A DNA stretch of 48,682 nucleotides from a virus (lineage: Duplodnaviria; Heunggongvirae; Uroviricota; Caudoviricetes): positions 1 through 48,682 of IMG/VR virus record IMGVR_UViG_2511231131_000006; one strand, 5' to 3'. The notes beneath the pieces were generated by a model. That model was given only the letters and a program-made list of their open reading frames with translations. It did not search any database and was not told where the DNA came from. Made by a program: the position numbers and the translations under genes. Shown here in pieces: positions 14,023 through 18,443 of this stretch; positions within the stretch are counted from its first letter, which is position 1; each line of letters opens with the position of its first letter.

Positions 14023-14388
14023 ATGACTGAACGGATAGAATTTGTTTTGCCTTACCCGCCGACGGTGAATACCTACTGGCGACGTCATGGCAATACGTAT
14101 TTCATCTCGGAAGCCGGAAAGCGTTATCGCCGTGATGTGGCGCTAATTGTTCGCCAGCAGCGGCTGAAATTAAACCTGTCCGGAAGGCTGGTGATAAAGA
14201 TTATTGCAGAGCCACCGGATAAGCGCCGTCGTGACCTGGACAATATCCTGAAAGCACCACTGGATGTGCTGACGCATGCCGGACTTCTCATAGACGACGA
14301 GCAGTTTGATGAAATCAATATTGTGCGCGGTCAGCTCGTTCCTGGTGGGCGGCTGGGGATAAAAATCACAGAACTGGAGTGCGCATGA
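14023..14388 (+). CDS. rusA: Holliday junction resolvase RusA
   Basis: 121 aa. Aligns by eye with E. coli RusA (PYPPTVNTYWRR, DKRRRDLDNILKAPLDVLTHAG, GGRLGIKITEL). Confidence 0.85.
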   Translation: MTERIEFVLPYPPTVNTYWRRHGNTYFISEAGKRYRRDVALIVRQQRLKLNLSGRLVIKIIAEPPDKRRRDLDNILKAPLDVLTHAGLLIDDEQFDEINIVRGQLVPGGRLGIKITELECA

Positions 14389-15074
14389 ATAACCACTATT
14401 TACAGTTTGTGCGTGAGCAGCTCATTATCGCCACCGCTGATTTGAGTGGGGCAACAAAAGGTCAGCTTGAAGCCTGGCAGGAGAATGCCATGTTCGATAC
14501 AGGGCGTTACAGGCGAAAAAAAATCCGGTACCGCGATGAAGTGACTGGAAAAATGATAACGCGGGATAATCCACCAATCCCGGGAAAGCAATCGCTGGCG
14601 AAGGTGACGTCAATTCCTCTGGTCAGTCCGGTTGAGTTTTCGACATCATCGTGGCGGCGGGCTGTTCTGTCTCTTGAAGAACATCATAAAGCCTGGTTGT
14701 TGTGGTGTTACAGCGGGAGTATTTGTTGGGAATATCAGATCGCGATAACACAGTGGGCGTGGAATGAATTTAATACTCAATCCGGTACCAGAAAAATTGC
14801 TGGGAAAACGCAGGAACGCCTGAAAAAATTAATCTGGCTGGCGGCGCAGGCAGTAAAAGCAGAACTTTTTGGTGGGGAAGGTTATGAATATCAGGAGCTG
14901 GCATTACTGGCGGGAGTGACAACTAAAAACTGGTCCAAAACATTTACTCGTCACTGGGTTGCAATGAAACACATTTTTCACCGACTGGATAGTGAGGCTT
15001 TATTATTTGTAATGAGAACACGTTCAAAACAAAAGGCGGCATTTTCAAAGCAAAGTGTTGCAAAAGTAGATTGA
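14379..15074 (+). CDS. Late-gene antiterminator Q-like protein
   Basis: 231-aa ORF directly after rusA and directly upstream of a promoter/terminator and tRNA cluster, the canonical Q position. Assignment by synteny. Confidence 0.5.
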   Translation: MRMNNHYLQFVREQLIIATADLSGATKGQLEAWQENAMFDTGRYRRKKIRYRDEVTGKMITRDNPPIPGKQSLAKVTSIPLVSPVEFSTSSWRRAVLSLEEHHKAWLLWCYSGSICWEYQIAITQWAWNEFNTQSGTRKIAGKTQERLKKLIWLAAQAVKAELFGGEGYEYQELALLAGVTTKNWSKTFTRHWVAMKHIFHRLDSEALLFVMRTRSKQKAAFSKQSVAKVD

Positions 15075-15137
15075 AAGGCATATATTTCATGCAAATCTGA
15101 TATTTTGCCGATTTTGTACGTGATGGCAAAAGCAAAC

Positions 15138-15165
15138 AAAACCCGCCCACAAGCGGGTTTTGTTG
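15138..15165 (+). terminator. Terminator hairpin downstream of Q (tR-prime-like)
   Basis: AAACCCGC-CCACAA-GCGGGTTTT hairpin about 65 nt after the Q stop. Confidence 0.4.
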
Positions 15166-15269
15166 TGCCACTTATCTCGGATAGACATGGTGAATGCGCT
15201 GGTGGAGGAGATAAGGGTGATTTTTGTATGCTTGCAACATTGATTTCGTAACGTTATTATCCTGCGCCC

Positions 15270-15345
15270 GGCCCTTTAGCTCAGTGGTGAGAGCGAGCGA
15301 CTCATAATCGCCAGGTCGCTGGTTCAAATCCAGCAAGGGCCACCA
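15270..15345 (+). tRNA. tRNA with anticodon CAT (Ile2 lysidine type or Met)
   Basis: Cloverleaf: acceptor GGCCCTT/AAGGGCC, D-arm AGCTCAGTGGT, anticodon loop with CAT, T-loop GGTTCAAATCC, 3' ACCA. Confidence 0.8.
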
Positions 15346-15509: not shown

Positions 15510-15681
15510 CTACACTTATTTTCCCGGCTCGCTTTTGCGGGCCTTTTTTGTATCTGCGCCACGCCCGGCGCATACCAACCACAGAGCCTTTCGGGGGGGA
15601 GCTTACGGAGTGGTCAGTGTGACTTTCTCTGTGGGCAGATCGCTCCCGGGCGTTGGCTCACCCACCCAAAGGAACGTCACG

Positions 15682-16114
15682 ATGTTTGGTATTTTTGGTA
15701 AAAAAAGCCCGCAGAGCGGCAACGGAAATTAAAAAGTTTGAAAAACGCGATCTGGCACAGGTGGTGATTAACGCCGCATACCTGGTGGCCTATGCAGATG
15801 GTGAATGTGAGGCTTCCTAGAAAGCGAAGATCGAACAGGTACTGCGTAATCAGCCTGCGCTGTCCGCGTTTACGTCAGAAATTAATGCGATTAGCGCAAC
15901 CATTATCGGTCAGCTGGATACGAACTTTAAAACTGGTCGTCGTGCGGCGTTACGTGAGATCGAGGATGTGAAACACGATACGCGTGAAGCGGAAGATGTG
16001 CTGGATGTGGCGGTGGCCATTGCGGAGGCAGACGGCGAAATTGAGCCGGAAGAGCGCAAGGTGCTGGAAGAGATTGCCGGTGTTCTGGGTCTTCGTCTGG
16101 AGAATTACCTGTGA
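15682..16114 (+). pseudogene. TerB-like protein gene, disrupted (frameshift in A7 tract plus in-frame TAG)
   Basis: ATG at 15682 gives MFGIFGKK then a stop. A 1-nt frame change in the A7 run (15710-15716) continues as ...AYADGECEAS, then TAG at 15818-15820, then 98 further in-frame codons ...AIAEADGEIEPEERKVLEEIAGVLGLRLENYL. The two ADG-E motifs are TerB-like. Confidence 0.45.
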
Positions 16115-16278
16115 CGGTAAAACTGCGCCTGACTGTGGCTGCACTCCTGCTGTTTCTGGTGGTGATGGTGGATTTCACCAGCAGAATCATGTCGGTGCTG
16201 GCGGATGGGGGGCTGGTCTGCGGCATTATGGTATTGCTGTGGCCGGTGATAAAAAGAAACAGCCTGCATAATGCTTGA
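16111..16278 (+). CDS. Possible small hydrophobic membrane peptide
   Basis: GTG start overlapping the TerB-like stop. 55 codons, VTVKLRLTVAALLLFLVVMVDF...GGLVCGIMVLLWPV, predicted two TM helices. Confidence 0.2.
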   Translation: MTVKLRLTVAALLLFLVVMVDFTSRIMSVLADGGLVCGIMVLLWPVIKRNSLHNA

Positions 16279-16592
16279 TTTTTTTGTTTGCTGTTTATTA
16301 AAAACACTTCTGCATGGTGAATCCCCCTGTGCGGTGGGGCAATCAGCAAGAAGGAATATGGGGTAATCGCGGATTCAGGTGCTGATACTGAATTCACCGG
16401 GAGGCACCCGGCACCATGCTTTGCCACAAAAGTGTTATTTCTGTTTTTCTCAAACTATCATCGTTATCCCTTTATTTTCGGCTGCGCATGGCGCGGCCTT
16501 TTTTTTACGACCAGCCACTGGCAGATGGTCATCCTGTGATTTGATTCCGCTTCCGGCTTTTTAACTCTGTTCCTCTACACGGGAGAAATTCG

Positions 16593-18443
16593 ATGTCGAT
16601 TAAACATTACGATGTTATCAGGGCGGCGTCGCCGTCAGACCTTGCGGAAAAGCTGACACACAAACTGAAAGAGGGCTGGCAGCCATACGGCGGACCGGTT
16701 GCCATTACGCCGTACACACTGATGCAGGCGGTGGCTATTGAAGGAGAGCCACAGGTCGGCCCTTCATCTGAGCCGGATTGGTACTACGTCATCGTACTGG
16801 CCGGGCAGTCCAATGCAATGGCTTACGGTGAAGGGCTTCCGCTGCCGGATTCATACGATGCTCCGGATCCGCGCATTAAACAGCTGGCGCGCCGCAGTAC
16901 AGTGACGCCGGGTGGGGCTGCCTGCAGATATAACGATATTATTCCGGCTGACCACTGTCTGCATGATGTGCAGGATATGAGTACGCTGAATCATCCGAGG
17001 GCTGACCTGAGCAAAGGGCAGTACGGCTGTGTCGGTCAGGGTTTACATATTGCCAAAAAACTGCTCCCGTATATCCCGAATAACGCGGGGATCCTGCTGG
17101 TACCATGCTGTCGTGGTGGTTCGGCATTTACCCAGGGCGCGGAGGGGACATTCAGCGAGTCCACGGGGGCCAGTCAGGATTCGGCACGCTGGGGGGTGGG
17201 CAAGCCGTTATATCAGGATCTGATTTCCCGCACAAAAGCGGCATTGCAGAAAAATCCCAAAAACGTTCTGCTGGCCGTCTGCTGGATGCAGGGTGAGTTT
17301 GACATGAGCGCCGCCACCCACGCACAGCAACCTGCGCTGTTTACAGCCATGCTGACACAGTTTCGTGCTGACCTCTCCGTGTTTAACGCGCAGTGCCATG
17401 GTGGCAGTGCTGCAGATGTGCCGTGGGTTTGTGGTGACACGACGTATTACTGGAAAAATACATACGCTACCCAGTACGACACCGTGTACGGCGGGTATAA
17501 AAACAGGGAGAGTGAGGGCGTTTATTTTGTGCCCTTCATGACAGACGGTAACGGCGTCAATACCGCCACTAACGCGCCGGCAGAAGATCCGGATATTCCG
17601 GCATCAGGATATTACGGTGCGGCATCGAGAACGAATGGAAACCAGGTATCATCAAACCGCCCGACACATTTCAGTTCATGGGCGCGCAGGAGCATTATTC
17701 CGGATCGTCTGGCAACCGCTATTCTGAACGCAGCCGGGCGCACCTCAGCCTTCATCAGTGGTAAGGCACCGGAAATCAAACCCTCGCCCGGCGGCAACAC
17801 GCCATCGGGTCCGTCTGCAGATACGTCCGTTCGCACAATCTCCCTGCTGCCGGCAGCCGGAGAGGCTGCTGCGCAGGGCTGGAGCATTAAGGATGGCGGA
17901 ATTCAGTTGTCAGATGGTGTATTTAAGATCACCAAGCAGAGCAATAAAACCTGGTCCCTGACGCATCCGGTGGATGACGCAATTACCCTGCTGACACAGG
18001 GCGGCAGACTGACCTGTAAGTTCCGCCTGTCAGGCGCACTGACCAACAATCAGTTCGGGCTGGGGATTTATCTGTATACGGATGCTCCCGTTCCTGATGG
18101 TGTGGCGATGACGGGTACCGGTAATCCGTTCCTGATGTCGTACTTCACTCAGACCACTGACGGCAGAGTGAATCTGATGCATCACAGGAAAGCCGGAAAC
18201 ACGAAGCTGGGGGAGTTCGGCGATTACGGTAACGACTGGCAGACGCTGGAGCTGGTGTTCACCGCCGGCAGTGCCACGGTTACTCCGAAACTGAATGGAG
18301 TGGCTGGCCCGGCATTCCAGGTTATAAAAGACAGTCTGACACTGGGACTGAATGCGCTGACGCTGACGGATGTTACAAAAAATGCAGCGTATGGCGTTGA
18401 GATAGAAAGTCTGATGCTGGAGATAAATGCACCGGCAGCATAA
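16593..18443 (+). CDS. NanS-p-like sialate O-acetylesterase (DUF1737 N-terminus plus SASA-type esterase)
   Basis: 616-aa ORF in the slot between the tRNAs/stx position and the lysis genes, where Stx phages carry nanS-p. N-terminus MSIKHYDVIRAASPSDLAEKL and GQSN(A)M esterase motif. Confidence 0.7.
   Translation: MSIKHYDVIRAASPSDLAEKLTHKLKEGWQPYGGPVAITPYTLMQAVAIEGEPQVGPSSEPDWYYVIVLAGQSNAMAYGEGLPLPDSYDAPDPRIKQLARRSTVTPGGAACRYNDIIPADHCLHDVQDMSTLNHPRADLSKGQYGCVGQGLHIAKKLLPYIPNNAGILLVPCCRGGSAFTQGAEGTFSESTGASQDSARWGVGKPLYQDLISRTKAALQKNPKNVLLAVCWMQGEFDMSAATHAQQPALFTAMLTQFRADLSVFNAQCHGGSAADVPWVCGDTTYYWKNTYATQYDTVYGGYKNRESEGVYFVPFMTDGNGVNTATNAPAEDPDIPASGYYGAASRTNGNQVSSNRPTHFSSWARRSIIPDRLATAILNAAGRTSAFISGKAPEIKPSPGGNTPSGPSADTSVRTISLLPAAGEAAAQGWSIKDGGIQLSDGVFKITKQSNKTWSLTHPVDDAITLLTQGGRLTCKFRLSGALTNNQFGLGIYLYTDAPVPDGVAMTGTGNPFLMSYFTQTTDGRVNLMHHRKAGNTKLGEFGDYGNDWQTLELVFTAGSATVTPKLNGVAGPAFQVIKDSLTLGLNALTLTDVTKNAAYGVEIESLMLEINAPAA

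Follow-up and report, generated by a model that had tools for sequence, protein, structure and literature searches.

What is a late regulatory region that is built like that of a Shiga toxin (Stx) phage and carries no toxin genes: an stx-negative relative, a site of cargo exchange, or a phage that has lost its toxin? The question is raised by positions 14,379 to 18,443 of a virus record of 48,682 nucleotides (IMG/VR record IMGVR_UViG_2511231131_000006), which was analysed at its full length and is called the window here. In and just beyond this region, the gene of a Q antiterminator is followed by a tRNA cluster, a short interval with one broken and one intact small gene (tciA and tciB), the gene of a NanS-p esterase, and a lysis cassette. 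The region is very probably the leader of the late operon in a lambda-like PPompW prophage, itself probably defective, of Escherichia coli O55:H7, and a mosaic of known modules. The arrangement is already known: it is a well-annotated, widespread mosaic with nothing new in kind, and the RefSeq annotation covers every protein gene considered, the TerB pseudogene included.

The module order that an earlier note had read from the letters of the window (Q, terminator, tRNAs, a TerB-like gene with a small open reading frame (ORF), NanS-p, and phage 21-type lysis genes) was confirmed by ORF, tRNA, Rfam, and Pfam scans, with matches much too strong to be due to chance (Table 1). The Stx2 phage 933W has the same order, namely Q, pR′, tR′, the tRNA promoter pT, ileZ/argN/argO, a terminator, stx2AB, STnc100/AsxR, nanS-p, and the lysis genes. 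It differs from the window in that its Q, pR′, and tR′ are unrelated, stx2AB stands in place of the tciA′–tciB pair, argN has the anticodon UCG where the window has a degenerate UUU gene, and AsxR is present. When the alignment to the Stx-phage backbone that the note had proposed was made, the order and the flanks proved to be shared with 933W, whereas the homology broke before 15232 and across 15561–16293. Among the features that mark a late region of the Stx-phage kind, STnc100 and nanS-p are found downstream of the cargo, while stxAB and a Q/pR′ of the Stx-phage type are absent.

Origin of the Prophage

On comparison with the O55:H7 strain CB9615 (NC_013941.1), the window starts with an integrase adjoining ompW; it is therefore assigned, by sequence, to the PPompW family as a lambda-like, ompW-integrated prophage of E. 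coli O55:H7. The O55:H7 strains DEC5D and TB182A are 100% identical to it over the 4,065-base region and CB9615 is nearly identical (99.9–100%). The ompW prophage of CB9615 is the same prophage at the same site and agrees with the window in Q, tRNAs, tciA pseudogene, tciB, esterase, and lysis genes. At least 80% of the 4-kb region is present in 527 of 5,426 complete E. coli genomes. PPompW prophages have been described as lambda-like and apparently always defective, and as residents of 44% of the complete E. coli genomes (Nakamura et al. 2021, PMC8112680); the prophage of the window is probably defective as well. The PPompW records of O145:H28 differ from it in two respects: they have ISEc20 inside the cargo slot, 50 nt past the post-tRNA terminator (contig L003, 7216–8674; window-equivalent 15602 onward), and in them the segment from tciA/tciAB to the lysis genes, which the window retains, is deleted.

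The Q Antiterminator and the Late Promoter

The regulatory part of the region had been described as Stx-phage-type, and this description does not hold. The Q protein shares 76% of its amino acids with Q of phage 82 and 73% with Q of phage 434, and matches the family profile over nearly its full length (PF06323 positions 2–217 of 220); in no Stx phage record is it native. Its family is encoded in 53 phage records, only five of which are “Stx” records; all five are composites (“Stx2a-converting”), and Q is located in their PPompW part.

A candidate late promoter PR′ overlaps the Q stop codon and is followed by a tR′-like terminator. Phages 434 and 82 have the same Q82-type module, and in alignment phage 434 keeps the PR′ hexamers, the initial transcribed sequence, a TGATAT/TGGTAT element, and the terminator core. 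TGATAT, which lies within the initial transcribed sequence, is a −10-like element conserved with phage 434. The 78-nt stretch 15093–15170, which spans the predicted PR′–tR′ leader RNA of about 75 nt, has a fold z of −4.4. Homology and position together suggest that PR′ would be used and that Q would act on it. Phage 434 is furthermore 94.8% identical to the window from tciB through Rz; it differs in having no tRNA cluster and in carrying another membrane-protein gene where the window has tciA. The matches of the leader to the Rfam families isrK and OrzO-P (E 0.2–0.5) were taken as chance.

The stretch 15171–15215, between tR′ and the tRNA promoter, contains an inverted repeat with 8-bp arms (CTTATCTC ... 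GAGATAAG) around a 29-nt loop, and then GGGTGATTTTTG. The repeat is conserved in phage Evi and could be the counterpart of the second “possible terminator upstream of the tRNA genes” annotated in 933W.

The tRNA Module

From the end of Q to the tRNA promoter, no similarity to 933W was found by alignment or blastn. The similarity begins at pT (15232) and continues at 87% identity (blastn) to 15560, through pT, three tRNA positions, and the terminator. Compared with the ileZ–argN–argO cluster of 933W, the promoter, ileZ, argO, and terminator are conserved at that level, and the CAU gene aligns with ileZ without a difference; the argN position is occupied by a degenerate UUU allele.

The earlier note had counted three tRNAs, of which two stand. 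The CAU and UCU genes pass ARAGORN, Rfam, and RefSeq alike and exceed the RF00005 gathering threshold, whereas the middle gene is named Lys-UUU by ARAGORN, falls below that threshold with no Rfam match even at E ≤ 1, and has no RefSeq annotation. Its anticodon loop reads CCUUUAA (anticodon UUU, C33), the A51·C63 pair is a mismatch, the acceptor stem includes a G·U pair, and one base of the D-stem is deleted. Alleles of this gene form a descending series of Rfam tRNA scores: 54.8 bits for argN of 933W, 53.2 bits for a related allele with the canonical CUUUUAU loop, 44.4 bits for the common UUU/C33 allele, and 37.0 bits for the Evi allele, after which comes the unscored window copy with one further D-stem base lost.

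The cloverleaf is 96.9% paired over 20 distinct alleles of the middle gene, and both-sided (compensatory) changes, the comparison with argN(UCG) included, are seen in four stem pairs as against 0–1 in slid controls; therefore, the UUU lineage evolved as a tRNA. It might follow that the window copy is a working tRNA-Lys(UUU) too, and the ARAGORN call, the compensatory changes in the allele family, and the 37–53 bits reached by its better-preserved members, above the Rfam tRNA threshold, all point that way. The replacement of the near-universal U33 by C33, the three stem defects, and the silence of Rfam and RefSeq on this very copy nevertheless make such a function very unlikely, and the window copy is most likely a pseudogene.

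The codons AUA, AGA, and AGG occur at 10.2, 8.5, and 5.1 per thousand codons in eight neighbouring genes, the K-12 averages being several-fold lower. This high use fits the usual rationale for phage tRNAs of this kind. Minimum free energy folding did not recover the tRNA cloverleaves and was left unused.

The Cargo Slot and Its Relation to Stx Phages

Similarity to 933W spans 15232–15560 and resumes at 16294; the variable slot, the counterpart of the stx2AB interval, is therefore 15561–16293 and not 15510–16592, as had been proposed. It begins after the post-tRNA terminator, and at the opposite end it is bounded by a small RNA (sRNA) gene with the CATGGTGAATCCCCC core. The wider interval had been said to hold only two ORFs, yet it also includes the predicted terminators at 15526–15551 and 16480–16507 and this sRNA gene, a predicted member of the STnc100 family. 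The blocks 16294–16340 and 16390–16419, which make up the STnc100 core, are shared with 933W at 87–97% identity and with the Stx1a phage at 91–94%. Farther downstream, 933W is about 70–80% identical to the window in nanS-p and about 87% in holin and Rz, and the Stx1a phage is 96% identical over 16580–19096.

The hairpin that the Rfam model has at its 3′ end is missing from the STnc100 gene of the window, whose probable 3′ end is the terminator upstream of nanS-p. The core is conserved downstream of both stx2B and stx1B. In 933W, STnc100 scores 207.7 bits and starts about 75 nt after stx2B, in agreement with published reports of STnc100/EcOnc27 immediately downstream of stx2 and with a prophage sRNA survey of 2026. 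AsxR follows just after STnc100 in 933W; in the window, the anti-sRNAs AgvB and AsxR gave no match in 14900–19200 even at E ≤ 1. On another viral contig (L013, 2265–3380), four tandem STnc100-family copies (77–132 bits) lie downstream of a well-formed tRNA with a UUU anticodon.

The contents of the slot were surveyed in 124 viral-contig loci (IMG/VR contigs and phage records) with a shared ileZ end and sorted by how far the sRNA core lies from ileZ. As the sample contains redundant entries, its counts serve as illustrations and not as frequencies. The slot is empty in at least 27 loci (about 280 nt), with the T-run of the terminator abutting sequence just upstream of the sRNA. An ORF of 108 aa and unknown function (phrog_2873) replaces tciAB or stx in at least 15 (about 900 nt; for example, L011, L018, and L028). 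The tciAB pair, intact or broken, is found in at least about 25 (about 970–1030 nt), and stx2AB in at least about 9 (about 1610 nt), contigs without a detected sRNA core being counted too; other distances correspond to rarer contents with other small ORFs. The tciA′–tciB pair of the window is positioned exactly as stx2AB in 933W, between the post-tRNA terminator and STnc100. The stx-negative lambdoid phages JLK-2012 and Evi have the same tciAB in the same slot, followed by STnc100, at 91–94% identity. Both differ from the window in having an intact tciA of 143 aa and another Q; JLK-2012 furthermore has tRNAs for Asn, Thr, and Gly, and Evi has lost nanS-p except for its first codons. The slot is a site of cargo exchange, a known moron site, as the earlier note had suggested: among the matches listed, the interval is seen empty or with stx2AB, tciAB, or other ORFs.

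The leaders of tciA and stx2A are alike in two places that are missing from empty sites: the first approximately 25 nt after the terminator (TATCTGCGCC...) are common to both, and the ribosome-binding region of tciA (CCAAAGGAAC) is similar to that of stx2A. The resemblance suggests a cassette frame common to both, a minor and unproven lead. Together with the tRNA module and STnc100 that flank the slot in 933W as well (87% identity over 15232–15560), the same resemblance could be taken to mean that the prophage is a former Stx phage whose stxAB was deleted or replaced by tciAB. When the cargo intervals of 933W and the Stx1a phage were used as queries (blastn with word size 7 and tblastx), however, no match to the stx2 or stx1 interval was obtained in the whole window, so a past toxin loss is without evidence. 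The Q/PR′ type is not native to any Stx phage record, and tciAB occupies this slot in many non-Stx phages, JLK-2012 and Evi among them; loss of the toxin is thus highly improbable.

A broader proposal has two parts. In the first, the terminator and STnc100 would form a fixed “landing pad” for cassette swaps; one of the two cassettes, stx2AB or tciAB, would have arisen within the framework of the other, and stx2 would have entered a moron frame already in place and not a naked site. In the second, which is independent of the first, the middle tRNA family would descend from argN, its anticodon having changed from UCG to UUU under structural selection, and its better-preserved alleles would be functional. 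Taken jointly, the two parts make a tentative proposal that we consider rather doubtful.

A consensus scan of the plus strand found no promoter-like site between 15551 and the tciA start at 15682; therefore, expression of the slot would need read-through from upstream. This and the position of the slot among three serial intrinsic terminators suggest that its expression would be Q-dependent.

tciA and tciB

The description of the slot genes as a decayed TerB-like gene and a small hydrophobic ORF proved correct. Both belong to recognised phage moron families (phrog_632 for tciA and phrog_1470 for tciB), which are also present in P1, P7, JLK-2012, Evi, and others. Compared with the intact 143-aa copies of JLK-2012 and Evi, tciA of the window has two lesions. 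A +1 insertion gives A7 instead of A6 (about 15700–15706), by which the ATG frame ends after 16 codons, and GAG is changed to TAG at 15818–15820. RefSeq flags the “internal stop” and not the frameshift. tciB is intact and equal in length to the Evi copy.

Among 26 tabulated copies of tciA (25 fetched loci and the window, with one copy unscorable at the frameshift site), 13 are intact (A6, GAG) and 12 are broken in four ways: seven, counting the window, have both lesions, three have A7 alone, one has TAG alone, and one has a different 1-nt deletion. With 12 of 26 copies broken in four ways, tciA is therefore decaying repeatedly. The idea that the gene stays alive through recoding, by slippage on A7 and read-through of TAG, draws on the homopolymeric nature of the A-run and the recurrence of the double-lesion allele, and is hardly credible against the 13 intact copies, the occurrence of the lesions singly, their independence of any tRNA allele, and the anticodon of the adjacent tRNA-like gene, which is UUU and not the CUA of a suppressor.

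A link of the UUU tRNA-like gene to the frameshift and TAG was considered and rejected, since the double-lesion allele occurs alike with argN(UCG), degenerate class-C, and UUU alleles. A minus-strand ORF of 166 aa at 15927–16427 was judged spurious. PADLOC returned no significant defence match for TciA, TciB, or NanS-p.

NanS-p and the Lysis Cassette

By its domains, the product of 16593–18443 is a predicted NanS-p sialate O-acetylesterase, and it matches the structures of NanS (PDB 3PT5, E 1e-122) and of the C-terminal domain of NanS-p (6YP6, E 1e-29). The gene is 96% identical in nucleotides to the copy of the Stx1a phage. A minus-strand pseudo-ORF placed by RefSeq over 16473–16616 was judged spurious.

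The gap of 447 bp that separates nanS-p from the holin gene (18444–18890) contains two similar hairpins, at about 18448–18492 and 18596–18642, and, just ahead of the holin, a strong hairpin that has a T-run and resembles a terminator (about 18795–18835). No Rfam family matched this gap. According to a 2026 preprint, sRNAs of the PasA/PasC family adjoin the holin, across the esterase from PasD/STnc100; by analogy, the gap may contain a PasA-type sRNA gene.

Table 1. Coordinates of the features of the late region in the window and the evidence for each.
Feature	Coordinates	Strand	Evidence or remark
RusA gene	14023–14388	+	Directly upstream in gene order
Q antiterminator, phage 82/434 type, 231 aa	14379–15074 (RefSeq start 14385)	+	PF06323, E 1e-90
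Candidate late promoter PR′ (−35 TTGCAA, 17-nt spacer, −10 TATATT)	15058–15086	+	Consensus scan
Predicted tR′-like intrinsic terminator (hairpin and T-run)	15135–15165	+	Hairpin core kept in phages 434 and Evi
Predicted tRNA promoter pT (−35 TTGCAA, 17-nt spacer, −10 TATTAT)	15232–15260	+	Aligns with annotated 933W pT
tRNA with anticodon CAU, ileZ-like (RefSeq tRNA-Ile)	15270–15345	+	ARAGORN; Rfam, 72.5 bits; RefSeq
Degenerate tRNA-like gene, homologue of 933W argN	15347–15422	+	ARAGORN only
tRNA-Arg (UCU), argO-like	15436–15510	+	ARAGORN; Rfam, 68.1 bits; RefSeq
Predicted intrinsic terminator after the tRNA cluster, left slot edge	15526–15551	+	Conserved in 933W, JLK-2012, and Evi
Variable cargo slot, counterpart of the 933W stx2AB interval	15561–16293	.	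Pairwise blastn breakpoints, alignments, contents survey
tciA (TerB-family) pseudogene	15682–16114	+	PF05099 on C-terminal part only; alignment to intact 143-aa alleles
tciB, intact, hydrophobic, 55 aa (DUF3927)	16111–16278	+	PF13064, E 6e-16; phrog_1470, E 7e-29
STnc100-family sRNA gene, right slot edge	16283–16455	+	RF02076, 100.8 bits against a gathering score of 47
Predicted intrinsic terminator upstream of nanS-p	16480–16507	+	Kept in 933W, Stx1a phage, JLK-2012, and Evi
NanS-p-type sialate O-acetylesterase, 616 aa	16593–18443	+	DUF1737, SASA, and DUF6645 (Pfam)
Phage 21-type holin	18891–19097	+	PF04971, E 1e-32
Lysozyme	19097–19594	+	PF00959, E 4e-46
Rz	19579–20058	+	PF03245, E 2e-46
Rz1 frame embedded in Rz	19811–19996	+	ORF list

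Other Features of the Window

Just upstream of the block of DUF968, RusA, and Q genes, the window carries a hok/sok toxin–antitoxin locus at 11836–11985 (sok, 103.9 bits; hokD in RefSeq) and the paa adhesin gene at about 10900–11650. A gene for a PerC-family regulator is found just past the lysis cassette. An Rfam match to isrC (150 bits) at 42323–42445 on the minus strand falls within the 1,260-bp segment 41255–42514, which matches the copy of ISEc31 annotated in CB9615 (1,260 of 1,260 bases, no mismatch); here, the isrC family seems to detect part of an insertion sequence.

A Model of the Late Leader and Its Meaning

In the proposed model, Q of the phage 82 type would act at PR′ and let RNA polymerase pass three serial terminators (tR′, the terminator after the tRNAs, and that upstream of nanS-p), so that read-through transcription would reach nanS-p and the phage 21-type lysis genes. 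The units placed between tR′ and nanS-p are the tRNA cluster with its own predicted promoter, the moron slot, and the STnc100-family sRNA. The cluster would supply tRNAs that decode AUA and AGA/AGG, its middle member having decayed, and the slot carries a dead tciA, with a frameshift and a nonsense change, beside an intact tciB. Differences in cargo are most readily accounted for by homologous recombination in the conserved flanks, that is, in the tRNA module and the sRNA. Two points weigh against the picture of an active late leader: PR′, pT, and the terminators are predictions from sequence, and the prophage may be silent in transcription or not inducible; an IS3-family insertion (ISEc31) is present farther downstream in the window, and one tRNA and tciA have decayed. 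The identities of the genes, the lesions, the breakpoints, and the polymorphism of the slot are established by the analysis; the use of the promoters, Q-dependent read-through, and recombination are inferences.

Beyond bookkeeping, the region has little significance, and it opens no new question. It shows lambdoid late leaders to be built from interchangeable modules, and the interval 15561–16293 pinpoints the place that bears the toxin in Stx2 phages, which helps to annotate stx-negative relatives in the O55:H7/O157:H7 lineage. It is also a reminder that the stx site is bounded by an sRNA gene and not by ORFs alone.

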